Shown here: positions 33,574 through 48,079 of the stretch, piece after piece | Layout: each line of letters opens with the position of its first letter | Numbering within the stretch: the stretch's first letter is position 1 | Source: an uncultured Candidatus Saccharibacteria bacterium | GTDB taxonomy: Bacteria; Patescibacteriota; Minisyncoccia; Phycocordibacterales; JABMNX01 | Reading direction: 5' to 3' | NCBI GenBank assembly: GCA_964575755.1 | Contig: CAZNRH010000001.1 | Location: forward strand, 17,100 to 81,099 | DNA: 64,000 nucleotides | Notes under the pieces: model-generated | The model's input: only the letters and a program-made list of their open reading frames with translations | Databases searched by the model: none | What the model was told of the DNA's origin: nothing | Program-made: the position numbers and the translations under genes

Positions 33574-33612
33574 CATCATAATGTGCGAAGCTTAGCTTCG
33601 CACATTATGATG
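33574..33612 (+). repeat. 39-nt perfect palindrome catcataatgtgcgaagct-t-agcttcgcacattatgatg
   Basis: 19-bp arms. Starts 4 nt after the obg stop codon. Confidence 0.65.
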
Positions 33613-33638
33613 ATAATTACATGGTAGTATAAATCTAT

Positions 33639-34304
33639 ATGAGGAAGATTATTTTTGCACAAGGTGAATATTACCACCTCTTTTGTCGAGGAAATAACAA
33701 ACAAACCATATTTCGAGATAATCGTGATAAGATACGTTTTTTATTTCTTATTTTAAATTTCCAATCTCCGATGACACATAATAACTTAGGGCGTTATGTC
33801 AATAATTATGTTAAAGATTCAACTTTTAATATAAAAGACGAGGATATTGATACCATGATTGAAGATAGATATGTTGAATTAGTTAGCTTTGCGTTAATGC
33901 CTAATCACTTTCATCTTATTGTTAAAGAAGTCGAAGATAAAGGAGTATCTCAATACATGCATAGAGTATTGACTTCATACACTAAGTATTTTAATGCCAA
34001 ACATGAGCATACAGGACATTTATTTCAAGGCTCATATGGAGCTGTACATGTCAGCGATAATGAACAACTGCTTTATTTGTCAGCATACATACATAGAAAT
34101 CCTCGAGATATAAAAAAGTGGTTTAATAAAGAAAGAGAGTACTACTGGTCAAGCTATCAAGATTATATTAATAAAAATCGTTGGGGTAAATTACTTGAGA
34201 ACAGCATAATAATAGATCAATTTAAAGACGGTAAAGATTACGATGGGGAAGTACAACAAAGCGGAGCAAAAGAATTACTTGATGAGAAACACACAATAAT
34301 TTAA
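33639..34304 (+). CDS. IS200-like / REP-associated tyrosine transposase (RAYT-like, HUH Y1)
   Basis: GEYYHLFCRGNNKQTIF N-terminus, HuH motif MPNHFHLIV, catalytic-Tyr region QLLYLSAYIHRNP. Paralog of 47358-48029. Confidence 0.6.
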   Translation: MRKIIFAQGEYYHLFCRGNNKQTIFRDNRDKIRFLFLILNFQSPMTHNNLGRYVNNYVKDSTFNIKDEDIDTMIEDRYVELVSFALMPNHFHLIVKEVEDKGVSQYMHRVLTSYTKYFNAKHEHTGHLFQGSYGAVHVSDNEQLLYLSAYIHRNPRDIKKWFNKEREYYWSSYQDYINKNRWGKLLENSIIIDQFKDGKDYDGEVQQSGAKELLDEKHTII

Positions 34305-34309
34305 CTATC

Positions 34310-34340
34310 AAAATGTGCGAAGCTTAGCTTCGCACATTTT
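34310..34340 (+). repeat. 31-nt palindrome aaaatgtgcgaagct-t-agcttcgcacatttt
   Basis: Same core as the left palindrome. Starts 6 nt after the transposase stop. Confidence 0.65.
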
Positions 34341-34434
34341 GATCAAAGTACACTTTGTTTTTTGATAGAGGGAATAGAGTCGTAATAGTGAAGTAGTGGA
34401 AGAGGATGGGAGTATTTGTTATAGTATTCCTACA

Positions 34435-35957: not shown

Positions 35958-37232
35958 GTGGAGTATAATATGTATATGAAAAGTTTAACTATAGAAGGAA
36001 AGAAATTTATCTCGTCAAAACAAGCTGCCGAGATTATGGGGTACACCCAAGACTACATCGGCCAGCTTGCGCGTAGTGGTAAAATCTCGGCACAACGCGT
36101 AGGAGGAGTTTGGTATATAGACGAGTCAGAACTTTCTGGACAATCTTCTAATATCTCTAAAGAAAACATAAAAAAAGGAAAATTTATAGATAATTTATTT
36201 TACAAAAATAAAAACGATATAGTTAGTGAGATAGACGTTAAAAATCTATTGGATGCCAATAAAAGTAAAAAAGAAAACATAACCTTCGAAGGTGTGGATT
36301 ATATCTCGTCAAAACAAGCTGCCGAGATTATGGGGTACACCCAAGACTACATCGGCCAGCTTGCGCGTAGTGGTAAAATCTCGGCTAGGCAAATAGGAAG
36401 GGGTTGGTATATACCACGATCAGTAGTGGATAAGAAAACCACTGAAAACAAAAATAATCCAATAACTTCATTCCAAGTAAATGAACAGGAAGAAATAGTG
36501 GAGACTCTTACTATTAACAAAGAAGTTAATAACGCTAACATAAGTACAAAATCAAAAGAGCAACAGAGTATAGTAGCTATCAGTAAGCCAAAAACCCCTC
36601 AAAAAGAGGTGTTTAATGACATGGTTACATTTCATGACAATAAAGATAGTAGAGGCGTAGAAAAAGAGTTACATGGATCTACTAAGATACATATAAACAA
36701 GAGAGAACAGCCCTTAATAAGCAAGAGGAACAAAGACGACTATTACTACCCATCTTTTTTAAGTGCTTCATATTCTTTAGATGATACACCGTTGGTTCCT
36801 ACACCAATGCGTTCACGAGAACCTGTACTTCATAAAATAGTAACAGGAGAGAGGAATGAAGTAGAAAAACATATAAAAGAAAGACAGCTGAACAGAGAAG
36901 ATAATAGTTTGTATTCAAAAAAAGTAATAAAAGATACCCTAAAACCCAAAAGACAGTCGTTGATGCAAAAATCACCAATGTCACTCATAAAAATCGCTTC
37001 ACTGGCGACTACTGTGGTTGTTGTTGCCTCAATCGTTACATTTATACCCCATACATCTGTATTTAGCTCTAGTACAAGCACTCTAAAGACGGTTTTCTTA
37101 TTTAAGACACCAGATAGTGGTAGTACTTTAAAGGCTGAAGTTACTCAATCTATACCAGATTCATTAATGGAGAGAATGATAGGTGTATTCAGTAGCTTTA
37201 CTGAAGAGAAAATAGAATATAATTCTAAATAA
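35958..37232 (+). CDS. Protein with two tandem excisionase-type HTH (HTH_17-like) domains, a low-complexity linker and a C-terminal TM anchor
   Basis: FISSKQAAEIMGYTQDYIGQLARSGKISA(Q/R)(R/Q)(V/I)G(G/R)(V/G)WYI occurs twice. A hydrophobic segment MSLIKIASLATTVVVVASIVTFIP lies near the C-terminus. Confidence 0.45.
   Translation: MEYNMYMKSLTIEGKKFISSKQAAEIMGYTQDYIGQLARSGKISAQRVGGVWYIDESELSGQSSNISKENIKKGKFIDNLFYKNKNDIVSEIDVKNLLDANKSKKENITFEGVDYISSKQAAEIMGYTQDYIGQLARSGKISARQIGRGWYIPRSVVDKKTTENKNNPITSFQVNEQEEIVETLTINKEVNNANISTKSKEQQSIVAISKPKTPQKEVFNDMVTFHDNKDSRGVEKELHGSTKIHINKREQPLISKRNKDDYYYPSFLSASYSLDDTPLVPTPMRSREPVLHKIVTGERNEVEKHIKERQLNREDNSLYSKKVIKDTLKPKRQSLMQKSPMSLIKIASLATTVVVVASIVTFIPHTSVFSSSTSTLKTVFLFKTPDSGSTLKAEVTQSIPDSLMERMIGVFSSFTEEKIEYNSK
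36008..36091 (+). repeat. 84-nt direct repeat, copy 1 (identical copy at 36302-36385), inside the 35958 gene
   Basis: tatctcgtcaaaacaagctgccgagattatggggtacacccaagactacatcggccagcttgcgcgtagtggtaaaatctcggc appears twice, 294 nt apart and in frame. Confidence 0.8.
36302..36385 (+). repeat. 84-nt direct repeat, copy 2
   Basis: Identical to 36008-36091. Confidence 0.8.
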
Positions 37233-37518
37233 TATATAATTATCGTATTTAAACGCCATCTCGTTAAAACGAGGTGGTGTTTTGTATCAGTATAAGAAGA
37301 TTATCCAATACTACTAACTTTATACATGTTAGTACGACCTAGTTTGTAGTTCGTCAGTCCAGACTATCTTTACTTTAAAACATTTTTTATTATTTTAATT
37401 TTCTTGTTCTCTTAATATTTATTAAAAGACAAATCTAAAAGACTTTTCCACAAACAAAAAGACATGTCCTTAAGAAAATGTTGTAGAATGTAGTTAAATC
37501 GTGTTAGCGACCATAGGT

Positions 37519-40500
37519 ATGAGTAAAGAAGTTTTTTTCAATAACAAAAAATATTTATCTTCTAAAGATGCCGGCAATCAGGCTGGTTATACTCACGACT
37601 ATATTTCTAGATTATGTCGAGAGAGGAGAATCCCAGGTGAGAAAGTGGGTGGATCTTGGTATGTAGAGGCTGAACCTTTCTTCATTTTTTTGGATGAACA
37701 AAAAAATAAAAAAAGTGAAAGTAATAAGAACTTATCAAAAGAGTGTAAGCAGAATTATAAAAAGACAACTGAAGAATATGAGGAACAAGTAATGTCACGT
37801 TTAGAATTACCAGAATTCCCAAAATATCTTTTACAAGAAGTAACAGCTGTAGTAATTTCTATTGTTTTAGTTTTTGGTGTGTACTTCGCAAAAGATTCTT
37901 TGTATGTTCGAGATGTAATTGATTCATCACAATCAAACATTTCTAGAATTTATGAAGACACAAATGATTCCGTAAATACATTCAGAGAATTATTTACATA
38001 TAAAAATATTGCAAATAGCACATTGAAAGTTGTTACATCAGGAAGCAATATTATCGAACAAGGGTTAGTTCGTTATTATTCTTTTATTAATACTTCTGGA
38101 GAAGTAGTTGTGGCAACTTCACACAAAGTAAAAGAAATAAAAAGACAAGTTACTGTTGAGAATATTAAAACTACCACCACAAATAAGGTTACTAAAATCG
38201 TTGCCCTTGTTTCTGAAAGGGTAAAAAAATTAAACCAAGATATAAAAAACGTAGCGCATAAAATCAAATATACATTTACAAAAGAAAATACATTGACTTT
38301 AGTATCTTCTACTAAAAATTACATAGTGTCATCTGCGAGCTCTGCGGTATTTAACACACAGTTAGCTATGACAAGCGCCCAAGGAGCACTTATAAGTGCC
38401 CCAGAGTTTATCGGACGATTTATCGAGGGTATCAGGGTGCGTTTAGTTAGTTGGCTTAACGTCAATGATGTTAAAACACCTTTTGCCACTGTTACTGAAA
38501 AAGACGATACCGCAGTATTAATAACCCAACCAACTATAAAAAGAGTAATAGAGACACAGCATGTAGTAGTACAGTCAGGTATAACGGAGTCGTTTGTATT
38601 AACTAAGCTAGAACAGTTAAACAACAAGCTAAAGTCAGAAATCTATAAACTCTCTTCAATAAACGCAGGTAATATCGTCAACAACTACAATGTAATCTCT
38701 CAAACTAACAAGATAGATAAACTTAAAGGGGTTGCAATCACAGGGTCTACGTTTACTGACGGTACTATTAGTGGAAGTACATCATTTTCTGGTACAACAG
38801 GCTCTTTCAGTGGAGCGGTATCAGTAGCATCACTTACCGTAACAGGAGATACAACCTTGAGTGGAAGCCTTTCATTAGGTGGACTTACTGTAGATACCGC
38901 AGGGCTTGTATATCTCTCCTCCTCATCAAATGTTGGAATTGGTACATCGACACCATACGCAAAACTTTCGGTTGTGGGTCCAGTAGTAGGAGAGTATTTT
39001 CACGCCACATCAACCACCGCCACCTCAACCTTTGCAGGAGCTCTCCTAGTAACTCGTGCACCAACAGTAGCCCACACATTTTCGTCATGGGTTACGGGCG
39101 CTTCAAACTCAGCACTCTTTGACGCTTCTCTTGTCATTAATCCAACTACAGCTACAGCAGACTCTAACTTAATTTCTGCAGCAGTGGGTGGCTCCGTACG
39201 TTTCTTAGTAGACGCAGAAGGTGACGTATTCGTGAAAAATCTTACTTCAGTTGGTTCTGTAACATTGTCCACCACATCTGCATCCTCTTTTACTGTTGAG
39301 GGTAATACAACATTGGGGGATGCAATCACAGACACCACAACAATCAATGGAACACTCACGGTTACTGGTGCGACAAGTGTATCAACAGTTGATGGAAACT
39401 TCGGAGTCGGAACTACGTCCCCGTGGGCACGCCTTTCAGTATCTGGTGTTGCAGGTGCAAGTACACCTCTGTTTTCAATCTCTACCACAACAGCAGGCAA
39501 CGCAACAAGTACTGCCATCTTTGTTGATGAAAACGGAAAATTTGGTATCGGTACTACATCACCATTCGCACAGCTCTCGGTGGCGGGCAACGGACTCTTT
39601 AGTGGTACACTCACGACTACCAATCTAATAGCAAGCAGTATTTCTACATTGAACTCACTTTCTTTAACTGGTCTCGCTACATTTACAAATGGATTTATTT
39701 CACAAGCTTCCTCAACCATCTCAAGTGGTGGACTCACAACAGTTGGTTACTCCACAACAACCAAAGCACTTGTTGTACAAGGTGCCTCGGCAACTTCAAC
39801 ATTCGCAGGCGGTCTTGCAGTAGAAACCTCAGGATTTGTGTACGATTACAGTACGAATAGAGTTGGAATTGGTACCACTTCACCACTAGCCAAGCTCGAT
39901 ATATACGGCGACATAATTTTGTCAGGGACAGACAGACACTTAAACTTTGGTGATACATCAGGAACAAATGGTTACGGTTTCCGTGACAACTCAGGCACAA
40001 TGCAATTCAAAGACTCAGCAGGAGCATGGGCTGCTTTTGGTTCAGGAGGAGGTTCAGACATTTTTTCTCTAACAGACGCAACAACAGTAGAAGCAACCAC
40101 AACAAATGCAGGCATCAGTCTTAAATTAGATTACTTCACTGCCACTTCAACAACCGCAACTTCAACCTTTGCCGGCGGTCTTGCAATTGAAACATCAGGA
40201 TTAGTCTATGATTATTCTACTGGAAATGTTGGTATAGGTACTGCGAGTCCAACACAAGCTCTTGATGTTGGAAGCGGTAACATAACCACTACAGGCACAC
40301 TAGCGGCTGGTGCGACGACACTTAATGGTCAGACAATAGTTGGTGGGACAGGTTCTGTATCTGTAGGTAGTTTGGTTGGTGAATTACAGGTTCAAAAAAC
40401 TGGGACAAATGTAGCCGCATTTTCTGCTTATGAAAACTTTACTAGTGGCGCAGGTCTTGTTCTCGGCCATTCTCGTGGGACATCTATAGGTGCATTTAAT

Positions 40501-41451
40501 ACCGTTATTACAGGAGATGGAGTTGGACATATTGATTTTGCAGCAGCTGACGGAACAGACTTAAATAATCTAGCTGCAAGTATCCTTGTATCTGTTGAGG
40601 GTACAATAGCAGGGAACAGGACTCCAGGTAAGATTGAGTTCCAAACAGGAGCTGATGCTGCTGGCTCCGCACTTACCACCGCCCTCACCCTAGACTCCAG
40701 TCAGAACTCTACGTTTGCTGGTACCATAGGTTCTGACATAATAACTATTACATCAGCAAGTGACCAAAAACTTATACTTGCTGGTTCAGCTTCTCCTAGG
40801 TTAACTCTGACACCAACTAGCGGGGATGAATTTAGCATTCAAAACAACACAGGAGTCTTAAAATTCACAAATAATACAGATAGCGACAGGGTTGATTTAA
40901 CGATAGATGGAGATGGCAATGTTGGCATTGGAACTTCAACCCCATGGGGCAAGCTTTCAGTTGAGATGGACACAGTAAACCCTTCATTTGTAGTATCAAA
41001 TCAAGGCTCATCAACTCCAGCACTATACATAAGTGGAGTAAACCAAGATGGAGTTATTGGTATTGGTACAAAAGGAGGCTCAGGCAGGCGACTTGATGTA
41101 TTTGACGCTGGGAATCCTCAGCTTCGTCTATCGCAGACGAGCAGTATCTTCACGAACTTCCAAGTCGCCGCATCAACAGGAGACCTCACGATTGACCTTA
41201 ATCCAAACACAAGCGCGACAGATATATACATGACGCAAACAGGCGGTACTACTGGCGCAAACCTGCGTGTATGTGAAGGAACAGCATGTCCAAGTGTAGT
41301 AATCAATAACGGTGGTAATGTGCTTGTAGAAAACGCAGTCTATTTTGGCAACGGCTTCCGCATAGACCAAGTAGTAGGCACAACCACAGAGATAGCGGTC
41401 TACGGTGTAACATCAACCACAACCCCAATCATCATTTTTGATGAGTTCTAG
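37519..41451 (+). CDS. Giant membrane-anchored protein: N-terminal excisionase-type HTH, single TM, ~1180-aa extracytoplasmic Thr/Ser/Gly-rich region with tail-fibre-like (V/I)GIGT(T/S)SP.AKL.V repeats
   Basis: KKYLSSKDAGNQAGYTHDYISRLCRERRIPGEKVGGSWYV (HTH_17-like), TM LLQEVTAVVISIVLVFGVYFA, then at least seven copies of the GIGTTSP(W/F/L)A(K/R/Q)L(S/D)V motif and duplicated FAGGLA(V/I)ETSG(F/L)VYDYST blocks. Start may be the TTG/GTG at 37501. Confidence 0.5.
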   Translation: MSKEVFFNNKKYLSSKDAGNQAGYTHDYISRLCRERRIPGEKVGGSWYVEAEPFFIFLDEQKNKKSESNKNLSKECKQNYKKTTEEYEEQVMSRLELPEFPKYLLQEVTAVVISIVLVFGVYFAKDSLYVRDVIDSSQSNISRIYEDTNDSVNTFRELFTYKNIANSTLKVVTSGSNIIEQGLVRYYSFINTSGEVVVATSHKVKEIKRQVTVENIKTTTTNKVTKIVALVSERVKKLNQDIKNVAHKIKYTFTKENTLTLVSSTKNYIVSSASSAVFNTQLAMTSAQGALISAPEFIGRFIEGIRVRLVSWLNVNDVKTPFATVTEKDDTAVLITQPTIKRVIETQHVVVQSGITESFVLTKLEQLNNKLKSEIYKLSSINAGNIVNNYNVISQTNKIDKLKGVAITGSTFTDGTISGSTSFSGTTGSFSGAVSVASLTVTGDTTLSGSLSLGGLTVDTAGLVYLSSSSNVGIGTSTPYAKLSVVGPVVGEYFHATSTTATSTFAGALLVTRAPTVAHTFSSWVTGASNSALFDASLVINPTTATADSNLISAAVGGSVRFLVDAEGDVFVKNLTSVGSVTLSTTSASSFTVEGNTTLGDAITDTTTINGTLTVTGATSVSTVDGNFGVGTTSPWARLSVSGVAGASTPLFSISTTTAGNATSTAIFVDENGKFGIGTTSPFAQLSVAGNGLFSGTLTTTNLIASSISTLNSLSLTGLATFTNGFISQASSTISSGGLTTVGYSTTTKALVVQGASATSTFAGGLAVETSGFVYDYSTNRVGIGTTSPLAKLDIYGDIILSGTDRHLNFGDTSGTNGYGFRDNSGTMQFKDSAGAWAAFGSGGGSDIFSLTDATTVEATTTNAGISLKLDYFTATSTTATSTFAGGLAIETSGLVYDYSTGNVGIGTASPTQALDVGSGNITTTGTLAAGATTLNGQTIVGGTGSVSVGSLVGELQVQKTGTNVAAFSAYENFTSGAGLVLGHSRGTSIGAFNTVITGDGVGHIDFAAADGTDLNNLAASILVSVEGTIAGNRTPGKIEFQTGADAAGSALTTALTLDSSQNSTFAGTIGSDIITITSASDQKLILAGSASPRLTLTPTSGDEFSIQNNTGVLKFTNNTDSDRVDLTIDGDGNVGIGTSTPWGKLSVEMDTVNPSFVVSNQGSSTPALYISGVNQDGVIGIGTKGGSGRRLDVFDAGNPQLRLSQTSSIFTNFQVAASTGDLTIDLNPNTSATDIYMTQTGGTTGANLRVCEGTACPSVVINNGGNVLVENAVYFGNGFRIDQVVGTTTEIAVYGVTSTTTPIIIFDEF

Positions 41452-42386: not shown

Positions 42387-42415
42387 CTAATTCCTAATTC
42401 CTAATTCCTAATTCC
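42387..42415 (+). repeat. Four tandem copies of the heptamer CTAATTC immediately upstream of tatA
   Basis: ctaattcctaattcctaattcctaattcc ends 9 nt before the tatA ATG. Related TAATTCCTAATTC motifs precede the ORFs at 42962 and 43465. Confidence 0.7.
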
Positions 42416-42424
42416 TTTTAAATT

Positions 42425-42664: not shown

Positions 42665-42928
42665 ATGAAAGAGACTCAAACAAAAAACAAAGAAGTAGTT
42701 TTTAACAGGCACAGAAGGACATTTCTTACTGTTGCTGGTACGGGTGTCATAGCTTTTATTTTAGGGAAGATATTTGGGCCAAGCATTAACCTTTTCTCGA
42801 AAGATCATGCTATTAGCGAGAAAGAGTTTCGTAATTTTCGTATCGTCGAGACAAATAAAGAGATGAAGTTCTACGACCGTGGAGGAAACGAAATATTTAT
42901 TGTAGATAAAGAAAGTTTTGCACAATAA
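42665..42928 (+). CDS. Small protein with a twin-arginine-like signal/anchor (NRHRRTFLTVAGTGVIAFILG); possible Tat substrate
   Basis: RRTFL fits the S/T-R-R-x-F-L Tat motif. An h-region follows. The mature part is about 55 aa. Located 9 nt after tatA. Confidence 0.4.
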   Translation: MKETQTKNKEVVFNRHRRTFLTVAGTGVIAFILGKIFGPSINLFSKDHAISEKEFRNFRIVETNKEMKFYDRGGNEIFIVDKESFAQ

Positions 42929-42961
42929 ATAGATTTAATCACTAATTCCTAATTCACTATC

Positions 42962-43366
42962 ATGACAATGCGCATCTCAGCAACCCGAATAGATATGGAT
43001 GATAAAATCCTTCAAAAACCAGTTTTGAAGGATTATGGAGAGACTCTTACGAGTGCTAATAGTAGTACTACGTACACAATAGACCTAACCCTTGGCAACA
43101 CGTTTAAAATCACAATGACGGGTAATTGTACATTTACGTTTTCAAATCCACCTGTTACAGGAACAACAGGAAGCTTTACTCTTATTTTAATTCAAGACGG
43201 TACAGGTACACGTACGGCAACATGGCCTGCGTCAGTTGATTGGGCTGGAGGCACAGCTCCAACTCTTACTACAACTGCAACTACAGGTACGGACATCATA
43301 ACTTTTATAACAACTGACGGCGGAACAATTTGGTGGGGTTTTGCAGCTGGTATTAATATGAGCTAA
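42962..43366 (+). CDS. Hypothetical small Thr/Gly-rich beta-type protein
   Basis: 134 aa with no motif recognised. Preceded by a TAATTCCTAATTC motif. Same strand, tight spacing with neighbours. Confidence 0.35.
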   Translation: MTMRISATRIDMDDKILQKPVLKDYGETLTSANSSTTYTIDLTLGNTFKITMTGNCTFTFSNPPVTGTTGSFTLILIQDGTGTRTATWPASVDWAGGTAPTLTTTATTGTDIITFITTDGGTIWWGFAAGINMS

Positions 43367-43464
43367 AGGTGAGTTATAAATGTCTTAATTACACTTAATT
43401 CTTGATTATTAATCTACACTTACTCTATGTTTAATTCTTTATTCATAATTCCTAATTCTTTTCT

Positions 43465-46400
43465 ATGCCATTAGGAGCAGAATTCAGAGGACTACTTGGA
43501 ACTGCTGGAACCTCCAGTAGCTCTTTCGTGATTCCACAATCAATCCGCTTTAACGACAACGACTTAGCATATATGTCCAGGACACCTTCAGTGGCCGGTA
43601 ACCGCAAGACATGGACTTGGAGTGGTTGGGTTAAACGTGGGAGTTTAGGAGGTTCCCAAGTAATATTTGGTGCTGGTGCGAACAGTTCTGATAGAGCTTT
43701 ATTTTATTTCAGTGGGGACAATCCTACATTTATTATAAGTGCTGCGTCAGTTAATATAGGGTTTATAAAGACTACACAAGTATTACGAGATCCTTCAGCG
43801 TGGTATCATCTTGTTCTTGTTGTTGATACAACTCAAGCTACAGCGGCTAATAGATTAAAGATGTATATAAACGGGGAGCAAGTAACATCGCTTTCTACTG
43901 CAACATATCCAGCTCAGAATACAGATACTTATATCAATTACACAGAAATTCATAGGATAGGTAGTGATTCCGCAACCATCTCAAGTCTTATGGATGGCTA
44001 CCTCGCAGACGTACACTTCATTGATGGTTCTGCACTAGCCGCTTCCGACTTTGGTGAAACAGACGCTAACGGTAGTTGGGTTCCTATTGAGTTTGACAGT
44101 AGTGCTATCGCCGCAGAAACAGTCACCTCTAGTTACTGTACCAGTGCCGTTGATGCTACAGATAGCGCCTCTTACACATTCTCTAGCCAGTCTATTGGCA
44201 CAGCGACATCAGACAGAATAGTCGTAGTCACCACCGCGCAAGGTAACGTCGGTATGACTGTGGGTTCTCTGACCGTTGGAGGCATCAGTGCGACTGAGGC
44301 TATTGAAATAACTGAAAGCACTGGGTACGCCACTTCTGGGCAATGGTATGTACCAGTTCCAACAGGAACAACTGCTGACATAGTTGTTAATATTTCAGGT
44401 GGTACTGCATCAAGATGTGGTATCACAGTTCACGCAATATATGGCTCTAGTGGAAAGCCCTACGCAACAGCTTACGCTGAACAGGACTACCCTCTTATTC
44501 AATCCATCCAAGTTCCCGATAATGGGGTGATCATCGGCGCGTCAATGGTTAATTCCGGTGCGCCAACTGTCACTTGGACTAACCTCACTGAACGAGTTGA
44601 CGAAGTAATTGAGAGCGCCTCATCCTCACAATCTGTGGCTTCGGATGCATTTGCTACGGGCGGGTCAATAACTGTTACCTGCTCCCCTGCGTCAGATAAC
44701 CGTGAAGTGCTAACCCTAACTTCATGGGGCGCGGTAGGAGGCTACGGCACCAACGGCTTTTATATTGATGGGGCTGACAGTGCTAATCTTGGTTTAGATG
44801 TGAATGCAGTAACTAGCACGGCTTTAACAGTTACATTCACAGATAGCTCGGTAGATACATCAAACAGTACAGCCTACACATTTTCTTCTCAGGCAATCGG
44901 CGCAGCAGGAAGTGATCGTACTATTGTCGTTGCTACAAATGGTGAGGGTGGAGGCGCAAGTCGCTATGTCAGCACACTGACCATTGGCGGCGTAAGTGCA
45001 ACAAAAATAGTTTCTAGCTTATCAGAAAACCTCTATTGGCCTTGTGAGATGTGGAAAGCTGTCGTCCCAACAGGCACTACGGCGGATATTATCGTTACTT
45101 GGGATAGTAACATGTCTGAGTGTGGCTTAGGGGTGTGGGATGTTCGTAATATGGGGGGGGTGTTTTCTTCTGGTACAGATAGTACAGACCCCGGAAATAC
45201 CACCCTGTGGATACCTGCTGGTGGCGTTGGGATTGGTTCTATGAAAAGCGGTGGCGGGGTTGCATCGTACACTTGGACAGGATTAACCAAAGACTATGAT
45301 GAACTTGTTGACAGTGCGAACAATGGGTATCATTCAGGAGCCAGTATAACAAACGCAACGGCACAGTCTCTTGCTATTGAGGCCAACCCTTCCGGTGGTT
45401 CACAGTTTGCATTTTGTGCCGTGTCCTTTGTGATGGCAAATGATAATTCATTTGCCCCTTCCGGCCTGACAACTGCCGATCAAATGCTCGACAGCCCGAC
45501 CGATGATGCGGCGAATGGGATTGGCAATTACTGCACTTGGAACGTACTTAATAACTCGGGTCCAGGATACACATGGTCAAATGGCAATCTAAAGTCAACT
45601 TCGGATGCTCAAGGTCAGGACGGCGCATCTGGAACACTCCATGCTTCTTCTGGTAAATATTATTTTGAGTACACTGTCGACGCTATCGTAACTGGTGGAA
45701 CTGTATATGGAGTATGTACTGATGGTTGTGCGGCCTCTAGTGATATGGTTGACGGCACGGTCGCGGGTGGTATGGATCTTTATGGCGGTGGCGAAGTTTA
45801 TGGATACAGAGGAACCGGAGGAAAAGTTGATATTTCCTCCGACACAGCTTACGGGACTTCGTTCGTCGCTACTGATGTAATTGGCGTAGCTCTAGATTTA
45901 GATAATGGAATTATTTGGTTCAGTAAGAACGGCGCTTGGCAAGAATCTGCGACGCAGGGCGAGATCGAAGCAGGGACTACGACCAACGCAGCATTTACAT
46001 GGACCCCAGCTGGTCAGTTCTGGACTATTTGGATGCACGATTTTGGTGCAAATTCATCTGGCACTTTTAATGGGGGTCAATCAGGTTTTACGTATACCCC
46101 TCCAACAGGTTTCAAAGCTCTTTGTACCGCCAACCTCCCAGCCCCTACTATTACAGACCCTAGCGCCTACAATCAGACAGAACTCTTTACAGGTAATTCA
46201 GCCACAAATGTTATTACGTTTAGTGGTAACTCCACAATGCAACCAGACTTAGTATGGATTAAGCGACGGGATTGGTTAGGAAGTAACCATGTTATTACTG
46301 ATAGTGTTCGTGGTGTTACCAAGGAGATTAACTCGGACCTTACTAATGCAGAGTCCACGGAAGCTACTGGCTTAACTTCTTTTGATACAAATGGATTTAC

Positions 46401-47175
46401 TATTGGATCACATGGTGATTATAATACTAGTGGGAAGCTACAAGTAGCGTGGTGTTGGAAGGCAGGTGGCGCTGGCGTTTCAAACACTGACGGCTCCGTT
46501 ACATCAACTGTCAGTGCCGATACAACAAGTGGTTTCTCGATTGCCAAGTATACTGGGCTAGATGCTGCCATAACGGTCGGGCATGGACTATCAAGTGCTC
46601 CAGAATTCATAATAGTCCGTAATCTTTCGGCTGTTGCCAGTTGGGCTGTGTATCATAAAGATATGACAGGCGCAACCTACTACTTGACGCTTGACACAAC
46701 CGTAGCACAAGCTGGACCTGATGCTAGTATTTTTTCAGCCGCACCAACTGCTACTATCCTTAATATTGGGAACAGTATCAGAACAAGTCGCGCATCAGAG
46801 AACTTTATTGCTTATTCTTGGCACTCAGTTTCTGGCTTCTCCGCTTTTGGCACATACACAGGCAACGGTTTAGCAGATGGGCCTTTTGTTCATTGTGGTT
46901 TTAGGCCAGCGTTTATTATGATTAAAAACATAACTTCTGCTGGAAGTTGGAATTTGATAGATGTTAAAAGAGATAACTATAACGTTGTGTCAAGACGTTT
47001 ATTAGCACAAGCCCCTGATGTGGAAGTTACCGGGGGAACTTATATGGATATCACCTCAAATGGTTTCAAACGGCGTTCAACAAACTTCAACACGGACACA
47101 GAAATATATCTTTACGCAGCATTCGCAGAACACCCGTTCGGTGGTGATGGTGTCTCTCAAGCACGAGCACGGTAG
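43465..47175 (+). CDS. Giant (1236 aa) protein with an N-terminal LamG/concanavalin-A-like lectin domain and a long Thr/Ser/Gly/Ala-rich beta-repeat region
   Basis: FYFSGDNPTFIISAASVNIGF...WYHLVLVVDTTQATAANRLKMYINGEQV matches the LamG-like jelly-roll signature (W.HLv.v.d......lYvnG). No classical signal peptide. Preceded by a cataattcctaattc motif. GC visibly higher than the surrounding genes. Confidence 0.5.
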   Translation: MPLGAEFRGLLGTAGTSSSSFVIPQSIRFNDNDLAYMSRTPSVAGNRKTWTWSGWVKRGSLGGSQVIFGAGANSSDRALFYFSGDNPTFIISAASVNIGFIKTTQVLRDPSAWYHLVLVVDTTQATAANRLKMYINGEQVTSLSTATYPAQNTDTYINYTEIHRIGSDSATISSLMDGYLADVHFIDGSALAASDFGETDANGSWVPIEFDSSAIAAETVTSSYCTSAVDATDSASYTFSSQSIGTATSDRIVVVTTAQGNVGMTVGSLTVGGISATEAIEITESTGYATSGQWYVPVPTGTTADIVVNISGGTASRCGITVHAIYGSSGKPYATAYAEQDYPLIQSIQVPDNGVIIGASMVNSGAPTVTWTNLTERVDEVIESASSSQSVASDAFATGGSITVTCSPASDNREVLTLTSWGAVGGYGTNGFYIDGADSANLGLDVNAVTSTALTVTFTDSSVDTSNSTAYTFSSQAIGAAGSDRTIVVATNGEGGGASRYVSTLTIGGVSATKIVSSLSENLYWPCEMWKAVVPTGTTADIIVTWDSNMSECGLGVWDVRNMGGVFSSGTDSTDPGNTTLWIPAGGVGIGSMKSGGGVASYTWTGLTKDYDELVDSANNGYHSGASITNATAQSLAIEANPSGGSQFAFCAVSFVMANDNSFAPSGLTTADQMLDSPTDDAANGIGNYCTWNVLNNSGPGYTWSNGNLKSTSDAQGQDGASGTLHASSGKYYFEYTVDAIVTGGTVYGVCTDGCAASSDMVDGTVAGGMDLYGGGEVYGYRGTGGKVDISSDTAYGTSFVATDVIGVALDLDNGIIWFSKNGAWQESATQGEIEAGTTTNAAFTWTPAGQFWTIWMHDFGANSSGTFNGGQSGFTYTPPTGFKALCTANLPAPTITDPSAYNQTELFTGNSATNVITFSGNSTMQPDLVWIKRRDWLGSNHVITDSVRGVTKEINSDLTNAESTEATGLTSFDTNGFTIGSHGDYNTSGKLQVAWCWKAGGAGVSNTDGSVTSTVSADTTSGFSIAKYTGLDAAITVGHGLSSAPEFIIVRNLSAVASWAVYHKDMTGATYYLTLDTTVAQAGPDASIFSAAPTATILNIGNSIRTSRASENFIAYSWHSVSGFSAFGTYTGNGLADGPFVHCGFRPAFIMIKNITSAGSWNLIDVKRDNYNVVSRRLLAQAPDVEVTGGTYMDITSNGFKRRSTNFNTDTEIYLYAAFAEHPFGGDGVSQARAR

Positions 47176-47311
47176 ACTTCGATTTGGCGCATCTTTGTTG
47201 CGCCAGGCAACATACATTTCTCGTTCAAATATGCGACGTCCAACATCGCATATTTGAACAGAGCGTAACACCTACTCAAGAATAATATTTTGAATATCTC
47301 CAATATAGAAA

Positions 47312-47352
47312 CATCATATCACTTGGAGGTTCGACCTCCAAGTGATATGATG
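47312..47352 (+). repeat. 41-nt palindrome catcatatcacttggaggt-tcg-acctccaagtgatatgatg
   Basis: 19-bp perfect arms. Its outer catcata...tatgatg arms are shared with the 33574 palindrome. Confidence 0.65.
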
Positions 47353-47357
47353 TTTCT

Positions 47358-48029
47358 ATGCGTAAAACACCTTTTATAAACGGAGAGTTTTATCATCTTT
47401 ACAATCGTGGTGTAGACAAAAGAAATACTTTTGAGGACCAAGAAGATGTTAATAGATTTTTTCAAAGTATGGAAGAATTTAATGTAGTCGAGCCAGTGGG
47501 GAGTATTTATGAAAATTCATTCAGAAAAAAGAACAAACTTGGAGGTCGAACCTCCAAGTTAGATAAGTTAGTAGAATTTGTTTGTTATTGTATTAATCCT
47601 AATCATTATCATTTTATAGTGTCGCAAACTAGAGACAACGGCATTAGTGAATTTATGAAAAGACTGTCAGGGGGATATACATATTATTTTAATAATAAAA
47701 ACAAAAGATCAGGATCCCTTTTTCAAGGTACATTTAAATCTGTTCACATAGACTCAAATGAGTACCTACTACATTTAAGTGCTTATGTAAATTTAAATAA
47801 CAAAGTACATAAACTTAATAGTTCATCCTATAAGTTAGTGAGATCAAGTTGGAATGAATATATAGAGAGGAATAAAAAAAGACAAGCTGATTTTTGCGAG
47901 AAAAGTATTGTTTTAGGTCAATTTAAAAACCCCTCAGAATATAAAGTTTTTGCAGAAAATTCTTTGAATGATATTTTATACCACAAGTCTCAGAAGGAAA
48001 TAGGGTCTCTAATTATAGAAAAATTATAA
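47358..48029 (+). CDS. IS200-like / REP-associated tyrosine transposase (RAYT-like, HUH Y1)
   Basis: GEFYHLYNRGVDKRNTF, HuH INPNHYHFIV, catalytic-Tyr region YLLHLSAYVNLN. Paralog of 33639-34304 and of the 5' fragment at 2-376. Confidence 0.6.
   Translation: MRKTPFINGEFYHLYNRGVDKRNTFEDQEDVNRFFQSMEEFNVVEPVGSIYENSFRKKNKLGGRTSKLDKLVEFVCYCINPNHYHFIVSQTRDNGISEFMKRLSGGYTYYFNNKNKRSGSLFQGTFKSVHIDSNEYLLHLSAYVNLNNKVHKLNSSSYKLVRSSWNEYIERNKKRQADFCEKSIVLGQFKNPSEYKVFAENSLNDILYHKSQKEIGSLIIEKL
47536..47560 (+). repeat. REP palindrome aacttggaggt-cga-acctccaagtt inside the transposase ORF (encodes KLGGRTSKL)
   Basis: Same family as the flanking palindromes. Lies in-frame within the CDS at a position where the paralog 33639 has unrelated sequence. 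Confidence 0.6.
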
Positions 48030-48052
48030 TTTTCAAATAAAAATCCAATAGT

Positions 48053-48079
48053 CTACTTGGAGGTTCGACCTCCAAGTAG
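48053..48079 (+). repeat. 27-nt palindrome ctacttggaggt-tcg-acctccaagtag
   Basis: 12-bp arms. Starts 24 nt after the transposase stop. Confidence 0.65.

Follow-up and report, generated by a model that had tools for sequence, protein, structure and literature searches.

The window analyzed here is a stretch of 64,000 nucleotides (nt) from contig CAZNRH010000001.1 of an uncultured Candidatus Saccharibacteria bacterium (GenBank assembly GCA_964575755.1), numbered from its first letter. Within it lies a forward-strand gene whose product of 1310 amino acids (aa) carries, in a single chain, a helix-turn-helix (HTH) domain, a charged helix, one transmembrane (TM) helix, and a fibre-like ectodomain of 1185 aa. 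A first-pass annotation made from the sequence alone had described the gene as a fusion of an excisionase-type HTH and a TM helix with a very long fibre, and this description was correct, with support for a winged fold of the HTH/MerR type. The parts of the gene are listed below with the evidence used to assign them, which includes models made with AlphaFold2 (AF2).

37519-41451, forward strand: HTH-TM-fibre gene encoding the 1310-aa protein.
37525-37674, forward strand (aa 3-52): winged HTH of the HTH_17/excisionase/MerR-like kind, predicted to be cytoplasmic (BLASTP, PF12728, AF2, Foldseek).
37669-37800, forward strand (aa 51-94): long charged helix between the HTH and the membrane (AF2, composition).
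37825-37893, forward strand (aa 103-125): single TM helix, a predicted signal anchor with the N-terminus inside and the C-terminus outside (Kyte-Doolittle, AF2).
37894-38709, forward strand (aa 126-397): membrane-proximal stalk (low-confidence helices in the AF2 monomer).
38587-38706, forward strand (aa 357-396): conserved neck helix (AF2, heptad read-out).
38710-41100, forward strand (aa 398-1194): beta-rich fibre shaft of seven modules (motifs, profile against PDB).
38932-38973, 39400-39441, 39541-39582, 39862-39903, 40228-40269, 40921-40962, and 41056-41097, forward strand: seven capping-loop motifs.
39790-39875 and 40156-40241, forward strand (aa 762 and 884): duplicated FAGGLA..ETSG.VYDYST blocks.
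41101-41448, forward strand (aa 1195-1310): C-terminal tip domain without an S74 chaperone (comparison with the orthologues P0002 and P0003).

Stop codon included, the open reading frame (ORF) extends over 37501 to 41451 when opened at a GTG and over 37519 to 41451 when opened at an ATG. The ATG at 37519 is the predicted true start, both because orthologues open with MPNGVFLNN or MSNGVFLNN, which align with MSKEVFFNN here, and because a conserved leader, TCGTGTTAGCGAC, is out of the ATG frame at other loci. An identical protein is encoded on a Logan contig, where tatC is the next gene.

The N-terminal domain is related to the HTH_17 family. Residues 3 to 50 align with the two HTH_17 copies of the protein encoded directly upstream at 44% and 40% identity (BLASTP E values of 5e-14 and 1e-11, respectively). 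The full-length protein has no HTH_17 match in Pfam, only a subthreshold one to HTH_31 (E = 0.19; 0.003 on the N-terminus), and NCBIfam models, including TIGR01764, do not match it. Among its family homologues, 35 of 42 N-termini match PF12728 (best E = 1.1e-11), and the nearest orthologues already carry that annotation. An AF2 model of aa 1 to 135, built from 22 sequences, has a mean predicted local distance difference test score (pLDDT) of 88, rising to 95 to 97 over aa 10 to 60; residues 5 to 50 are ordered as strand-strand-helix-helix-strand-strand and are followed by the long helix (aa 51 to 94) and the TM helix (aa 102 to 134). Foldseek comparison of the HTH model with PDB returns RacA bound to DNA, BldC, TraN of pIP501, mycobacteriophage Xis, and pSK1 Par, with probabilities of 0.87 to 1.0 for the top matches and root mean square deviations (rmsd) of 1.4 to 2.6 Å over about 50 residues. 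Target-normalized TM-scores are 0.74 to 0.81 for BldC (rmsd, 1.4 to 2.1 Å), 0.69 to 0.70 for Xis, and 0.59 to 0.62 for RacA; the small size of the domain leaves the E values weak, at 0.04 or worse. The excisionase-type HTH proposed in the first-pass annotation is thus upheld by BLASTP, by the HTH_17 membership of its relatives, and by AF2 and Foldseek. These comparisons place the domain, as a divergent member, among the winged HTHs of the MerR/excisionase type, and its homology to HTH_17 members is clear.

The HTH is also the best-conserved coding section of the fibre protein. Basic residues recur across the family at positions 34 (Arg in 38 of 42 sequences), 37 (Lys or Arg in 35 of 42), and 45 (Arg or Lys in 35 of 42), and the mean net charge is +2.6; the protein studied here has additional Arg residues at 36 and 37 and a net charge of +2. 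Asp27 and Tyr28 are near-invariant where the “recognition” helix begins. The fold family and the conserved basic positions make it likely that the domain binds DNA.

The helix that follows (aa 51 to 94) is modeled at a pLDDT of 92 to 97 and is composed of about 20% Lys and 20% Glu, with no hydrophobic heptad pattern beyond aa 60. Hydropathy gives only one membrane-type segment in the whole protein, aa 103 to 125 (Kyte-Doolittle value of 2.1 over 19 aa), as had been supposed from the first inspection, and it falls within the region that AF2 renders as helix. The HTH-bearing homologues likewise have a hydrophobic helix after the HTH, which scores at least 1.5 in 44 of 49 cases and often ends in VFG(T/G)Y. 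The mean flank charge of the family TM helix is about +1.4 on the N-terminal side and about 0 on the C-terminal side, a positive-inside bias. A cleaved N-terminal signal peptide, which would have placed the HTH outside the cell, was considered and rejected: the hydrophobic helix begins only at residue 103, and a distance of about 100 residues to the N-terminus is too great for a signal peptide of the classical kind. Export of the fibre by the twin-arginine translocation (Tat) route was also rejected, as there is no twin-arginine motif before the TM helix and tatC is not downstream of the gene in one of the syntenic loci (L003). Fibre homologues without an HTH have ordinary cleavable signal peptides instead (e.g., ..NFSFA|AD), and the fibre part is therefore an exported module.

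The ectodomain has the Thr/Ser/Gly-rich composition reported for it at the outset: residues 400 to 1310 are 16% Thr, 13.5% Gly, and 12% Ser, and this region is Ala-rich as well. The first inspection had counted at least seven motifs of the GIGT kind and had seen the duplicated FAGGLA blocks; G[IV]GT is confirmed seven times (aa 473, 629, 676, 783, 905, 1136, and 1181) and the FAGGLA block twice. Five of the seven motifs satisfy the strict 14-aa pattern, and each of the seven shaft modules is closed by a capping-loop motif, (V/I/F)G(I/V)GTxxPxx(K/A)LxV. The repeats are also visible in the DNA, as repeat families D2, D3, and D8. Between 1 and 14 motifs of the GIGT type are present in all 120 homologues listed, so the repeats are not a chance feature.

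Searched directly against PDB with phmmer, the whole protein gives only insignificant coiled-coil matches. A profile (A3) of aa 126 to 1310 with 35 homologues, by contrast, matches five solved structures of the prey-grabbing mosaic adhesive trimer (MAT) fibres of Bdellovibrio bacteriovorus: 8ond (Bd2133; E = 2.9e-14), 8oml (7.5e-8), 8on4 (6e-6), 8ojn (1.7e-5), and 8ol4 (3e-4). The alignments pass through the GNVGIGTxxPxxKLxV motifs, which are set on the motifs of Bd2133, and they cover the shaft only. When the protein is compared directly with the Bd2133 fragment by BLAST, short stretches near the GIGT motifs match (E = 2e-5). The first-pass annotation had taken GIGT for a motif of phage tail fibres, which is partly borne out by a match to the PHROG tail fiber family phrog_9942 (E = 1e-9 over aa 954 to 1151). 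However, the best match is to the capping loops of the Bdellovibrio MAT fibres and S74-type fibres, and tblastn against 50,697 phage records gives four matches, all of them marginal. Pfam finds no Peptidase_S74 domain in the protein, whereas its relatives, including those with the HTH and TM helix, carry Peptidase_S74 (PF13884) and end in S74 or Ig-like domains.

Structure prediction of the repeat region gave a poor model. The AF2 monomer of aa 126 to 1310 has a pLDDT of 48.8, with local confidence only at the GIGT motifs and in the neck helix at aa 357 to 396 (pLDDT, 75 to 79), which has a heptad core of Leu, Ile, and Asn. Homologue depth climbs from aa 330 onward. The helices of the stalk reach a pLDDT of about 50 to 57, and a helical stalk over aa 137 to 313 is uncertain in this model. 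Residues 1 to 800 are collinear with P0002 and P0003 at 45 to 54% identity (46% for P0003), while aa 800 to 1130 cannot be aligned with either. The C-terminus is again similar, with 83% identity to P0003, from a Pacebacteria metagenome-assembled genome (MAG), over aa 1133 to 1310 (40915-41448) and 65.6% identity to P0002 over aa 1079 to 1310. This suggests either that the tip has been exchanged between genomes or that a ligand-binding end is strongly constrained, and a C-terminus with such an apparently mosaic makeup is the pattern expected of receptor-binding tips.

The fusion is not confined to this genome. The same HTH stands at the N-terminus of 49 of the 120 best homologues, each with a hydrophobic helix after it, so homologues do keep the HTH-TM-fibre arrangement; their sources are labeled Paceibacterota/Pacebacteria, Kaiserbacteria, Parcubacteria, Yonathbacteria, and “Patescibacteria group.” The first 140 aa, used on their own as the query of a word-indexed homology search, return no match. 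An exhaustive search of cluster representatives with a profile of the HTH-helix-TM cassette (A2) finds 10430, 5669, and 477 matches at E values of 1e-3, 1e-10, and 1e-30, respectively, the weakest of which may include soluble HTH_17 proteins. Two HTH copies (2xHTH) are present in 132 of the 142 new representatives at the top of the list, and 124 of these 132 also have a TM helix. The representatives extend for a median of about 60 aa past the TM helix; 17 extend for more than 400 aa, with a maximum of 6964 aa. Two proteins, P0165 (7214 aa) and P0205 (5533 aa), combine the 2xHTH-TM cassette with ectodomains of 5300 to 7000 aa. Database labels for these proteins read “helix-turn-helix domain-containing,” “DNA-binding protein,” or “hypothetical.” The pattern [ASV]GYTHDY[IV]S, which is narrow and says little about spread past close orthologues, occurs at five loci, four of them in records titled as Patescibacteria MAGs and one in a record labeled only “bacterium.”

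Judged from these profile searches, the HTH-helix-TM cassette is a lineage-wide module of the Patescibacteria whose usual form is 2xHTH-TM; among the proteins that carry it, those with a fibre, for which it serves as the anchor, are in the minority. The fusion had been thought unusual; the architecture is in fact common in this group, although we found neither a description of HTH-TM fibres in Patescibacteria nor a published function for the cassette in the open-access literature searched. The parts (HTH_17, the bitopic anchor, and the MAT/S74-type fibre) are known, and what is new is their combination, its abundance in Patescibacteria, the pairing with a second gene, and a conserved block upstream. 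These two neighboring elements, together with a hairpin between them, lie as follows.

35958-37232, forward strand: partner gene encoding 424 aa with two HTH_17 domains, a linker, a TM helix, and a tail (HTH_17 E = 1.6e-15 in two stretches; TIGR01764 E = 7e-14).
37254-37283, forward strand: hairpin followed by a T-run after the partner gene, CGCCATCTCG-TTAAAA-CGAGGTGGTG-TTTT (kept in six of six aligned loci).
37419-37518, forward strand: conserved upstream block, a candidate promoter/operator (cross-locus alignment).

The partner gene probably starts at the ATG at 35976. Its product has an extracellular tail of about 65 aa that ends in IEYK (the conserved family end is ..IEYKAK), and its linker contains a strongly conserved cytoplasmic linear motif, YYPSFLSA.YS.DDTPL.P.P.RSREPVLH.I, with the core YYPSFL..Y..D.PL.P.P.R. 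The protein belongs to an unnamed and very large family of Patescibacteria proteins that are about 300 to 430 aa long. A gene of this 2xHTH-TM type lies directly 5′ of the fibre gene in L002 (GCA_026195275.1), in L003/L005 (a complete Paceibacterota chromosome of 617 kb), in L004, L006, and L007, and in the more distant L010, from Kaiserbacteria. The recurrent order is Obg/GatB, 2xHTH-TM, and fibre, in some cases followed by TatC and TatA, with GAPDH also in kept order.

The hairpin is likely an intrinsic terminator separating two transcription units. Its only Rfam match is a subthreshold PyrR-like one, and an AT-rich variable stretch separates it from the conserved block. Across six loci (the present one and L002, L003, L004, L006, and L007), mean identity is 74% in the block, compared with 67% in the 165 nt that encode the HTH and 42% in the following 900 nt. 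The block contains three direct repeats of AA(A/G)GAC at 37425, 37438, and 37458, spaced by 13 and 20 nt, the third of which lies within the palindrome GACATGTC (37461-37468). A −10-like TAGAAT (37484-37489) is found 19 nt past a −35-like AAGACA, and the leader mentioned above is invariant (37499-37511) and lacks a Shine-Dalgarno sequence. The arrangement AAAGAC-N5-16-AAAGAC occurs three times in the window, two of them in this block, against 0.29 expected. Rfam has no match for the block, and a simple promoter/terminator scan flagged neither the block nor the hairpin; both came from the cross-locus alignment. The block is plausibly a promoter with operator sites. Because the AAAGAC triple is missing upstream of the more distant members L008, L009, and L010, the operator idea is confined to close orthologues.

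Several known systems resemble parts of this protein. The MAT fibres are surface-displayed proteins of about 1000 aa that form intertwined trimeric beta-helices (Caulton et al. 2024, PMC10769870); their capping loops carry a V-G-..-P-x-x-x-L motif, and the end of the fibre is formed either by an S74 chaperone or by a tip that varies and can be swapped. The same study describes them as related to the T5 and K1F phage fibres, which have an intertwined trimeric beta-helix with capping loops, and its supplement names predators and Omnitrophica, not Patescibacteria. The protein described here shares with the MAT fibres (e.g., Bd2133, Bd1334, Bd2439, Bd2734, and Bd3182) homologous shaft modules, the capping loops, and a swappable tip, and it is NS74-like. 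However, in MATs a signal peptide is followed by an N-terminal domain of about 130 residues, which is conserved, rich in beta structure, and thought to bind a surface element of the diderm predator (PMC10769870). In place of these parts, the present protein has the HTH, the charged helix, the TM anchor, and a different stalk. S74-type phage fibres (T5 pb1 and the K1F endosialidase) share the shaft motif, the phrog_9942 match, and, through the homologues, PF13884, but the protein lacks S74 and lies outside a phage context. We know of no phage fibre that is anchored in a membrane with a cytoplasmic domain.

On the N-terminal side, the best fold match of the HTH is RacA, the chromosome anchor of Bacillus subtilis (5i44; probability, 1.0), in which a winged HTH and a long helix link DNA to the membrane region. 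RacA reaches the membrane via DivIVA, without a TM helix or an extracellular part, and the identity is about 14%. The Patescibacteria 2xHTH_17-TM family shares the cassette but has two HTH copies, about 60 to 65 aa outside the cell, and no fibre.

We consider it about an even bet (probability of roughly 0.5) that the gene encodes, in a cell of the Patescibacteria (Paceibacterota), a MAT-like surface fibre for host contact that is anchored, N-terminus inside, by the HTH-helix-TM cassette, with the HTH tethering DNA at the membrane. The comparisons above show the order of the domains, the homology of each part, and the conservation of the fusion, of the gene pair, and of the block upstream; the trimeric state, the topology, the binding of DNA and of a host, and any coupling between them are inferred. 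The fibre tip would bind a surface ligand of a host or partner cell, and the shaft would consist of seven beta-helix modules, each ending in a GIGT loop, followed by an exchangeable C-terminal tip. By analogy with the MAT fibres, the fibre is most likely homotrimeric. The signal-anchor helix would hold it in the cytoplasmic membrane, with no cleavage of a signal peptide, and the rigid charged helix of about 45 residues would keep the HTH a few nanometres from the membrane. There the HTH would bind DNA at the inner face, tying the base of the fibre to the nucleoid or to a specific locus in a RacA-like manner, and the 2xHTH partner may well join in this tethering. Transcriptional control at the AAAGAC-repeat block is possible as a secondary function. 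We rank the architectural tether first among the roles of the HTH, ahead of ToxR-like contact sensing and then of RodZ-like docking or a plug, because the cassette mostly comes without a sizeable ectodomain, its fold relatives are architectural DNA binders, and the fibre module works with plain signal peptides too.

The Patescibacteria account for a large part of the diversity of bacteria, and to our knowledge every cultivated member grows attached to other microbes. A MAT/tail-fibre-like adhesin with a swappable tip would be a candidate determinant of host range, and the upstream block is a ready candidate binding site. Should the HTH bind this block or the nucleoid, the protein would provide a simple link from envelope to DNA in cells that possess very few regulators; otherwise, the cassette would still be a novel type of anchor by which bacteria hold surface fibres.

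A number of points weigh against this assignment. Taken alone, the N-terminal 62 aa score 17.3 bits against PF12728 (E = 0.0058), below the cut-off of 27 bits; wing position 45, usually basic in the family, is Gly in this protein; and the assumption that the domain binds DNA comes solely from its fold family. The topology is read from hydropathy, charge bias, and homology, and VFG(T/G)Y, the motif conserved where the TM helix ends on the outer side, could be a processing site at which cleavage would part the fibre from the HTH. The low-confidence model of the ectodomain is of a monomer of a presumed trimer, and a threefold-symmetric fibre would give three HTHs, which is an odd geometry for binding an operator. 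Finally, an episymbiotic life of this organism and contact of the fibre with a host are both suppositions.

The strongest alternative, which we regard as possible though unlikely, is a one-component regulator that senses contact: binding of a host surface at the tip would change the oligomeric state or the position of the TM helices or would trigger cleavage, by ToxR/CadC-like logic or with release by intramembrane proteolysis, and the HTH would then switch transcription, for example from its own promoter. ToxR, CadC, and TcpP are bitopic membrane regulators with an HTH, a TM helix, and an extracytoplasmic domain, and the present protein has the same order, with a DNA-binding-type domain predicted to lie inside, one TM helix, and a large domain predicted to lie outside. 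Several features fit a sensor: conservation is higher in the 100 nt in front of the gene than within it, and this stretch holds, at a promoter-like site, three direct repeats and a palindrome; no coding section of the protein is better conserved than the HTH; and VFG(T/G)Y might serve as a protease site. However, the HTH is MerR/excisionase-type, with no Pfam match to the OmpR/PhoB domain (Trans_reg_C), and its nearest folds are architectural DNA binders. The outer part is a fibre of 1185 aa in place of a small sensor, and it belongs to a mosaic adhesin type with no known sensor fold. Most proteins with the cassette expose no more than about 60 aa on the outside, which argues against sensor output as its primary role; together with the fibre homologues that work with signal peptides, this points to separable modules. 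The AAAGAC triple, moreover, is not kept in L010, which is syntenic. The ToxR/RsgI-like logic of the first-pass annotation therefore survives only as an analogy, as the DNA-binding domain is not OmpR-type and Pfam finds no RsgI_N anti-sigma domain in the protein.

A broader idea is that, in ultra-small episymbiotic bacteria, contact with the host cell is passed straight to the chromosome through the fibre, the TM helix, and the HTH: a membrane-tethered DNA-binding domain of the MerR/Xis type, alone or with the 2xHTH partner, would read out binding or tension at the adhesin and act at the AAAGAC block or by anchoring the nucleoid where the cell is attached. We regard this as doubtful. If it were true, the cassette, with its hundreds to thousands of clusters, would be an unrecognized envelope-to-DNA signaling or tethering system of the Patescibacteria.

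Less likely still is an adaptor role in which the HTH, in place of binding DNA, docks onto a cytoplasmic partner such as the cytoskeleton, the divisome, or the 2xHTH neighbor and thereby positions or holds the fibre, or simply plugs the fibre against being pulled out. RodZ provides the precedent, as it has an N-terminal cytoplasmic HTH, one TM helix, and a periplasmic C-terminal part, and its HTH binds MreB and so serves protein binding. The missing basic wing residue, the net charge of only +2, and the near-invariant Asp27 and Tyr28 at the start of the “recognition” helix are compatible with such a role, and the conserved gene pair and the linear motif of the partner would fit a protein complex. 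Nevertheless, every close fold match is DNA-bound or DNA-binding, basic residues at 34, 37, and 45 are conserved in the family, and RodZ has an Xre-type HTH and DUF4115, neither of which is present in this protein, where the HTH is of the HTH_17 kind.

Two genes of the Y1_Tnp family, which is RAYT/IS200-like, flank the region.

33639-34304, strand not given: Y1_Tnp gene 1, 221 aa (E = 1.4e-11), 3.2 kb upstream of the fibre gene.
47358-48029, strand not given: Y1_Tnp gene 2, 223 aa (E = 1.5e-7), 5.9 kb downstream of the fibre gene.

It is very improbable that the fibre gene is cargo of a mobile element or prophage, a tail-fibre gene between two RAYT/IS200 elements with a fused excisionase remnant as its HTH: the two Y1_Tnp genes, the excisionase-like N-terminal domain, and true phage-type tail-fibre genes 1.5 kb downstream are as this would predict, but the order Obg, GatB, 2xHTH, TatC, TatA, and GAPDH is kept in genomes without Y1_Tnp, the surrounding genes scanned include no integrase, terminase, or capsid gene, and the matches of the fibre to the phage collection are marginal.

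The earlier placement of the gene between two RAYT elements holds insofar as both Y1_Tnp genes are real, but the arrangement is incidental, since neither has a counterpart at the matching places of the other syntenic genomes. Because synteny is kept without them, the fibre gene is a conserved chromosomal gene. A composite transposon or RAYT-bounded element was likewise rejected: the two Y1_Tnp proteins share only 36% identity, each region has its own palindromes, and the synteny extends to element-free genomes. Region 1 (33574-34343) has perfect palindromic hairpins, ATGTGCGAAGCT/AGCTTCGCACAT, and region 2 (47305-48077) has perfect palindromic hairpins of the form ACTTGGAGGT..ACCTCCAAGT, one copy of which lies inside its gene. 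Between the Y1_Tnp genes and the fibre gene are gatB, tatC, tatA, and further genes.

The phage-type genes downstream encode homologues of phage tail-fibre or virion proteins of 134 aa (42962-43366) and 1236 aa (43465-47175). The larger protein matches phrog_19943 (E = 3e-173) and DUF7483 and is 33 to 40% identical to pelagiphage, cyanophage, and roseophage proteins over 58 to 70% of its length. The local G+C content is 48.5%, compared with about 36% around it; L002 lacks these genes at the matching spot, and no further genes of phage type were noticed in the vicinity. A repeat, TAATTCCTAATTC(CTAATTC), is found at 42388-42421, 42936-42955, and 43439-43458, just 5′ of tatA, the 134-aa gene, and the 1236-aa gene, respectively, and may be a shared promoter or leader element. 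Right behind tatC and tatA, an ORF of 87 aa (42665-42928) opens with ..NRHRRTFLTVAGTGVIAFILG, which contains a twin-arginine (RRxFL) signal, and it is likely a Tat substrate encoded beside its translocase. A gene of 86 aa occupies the equivalent position in L002.

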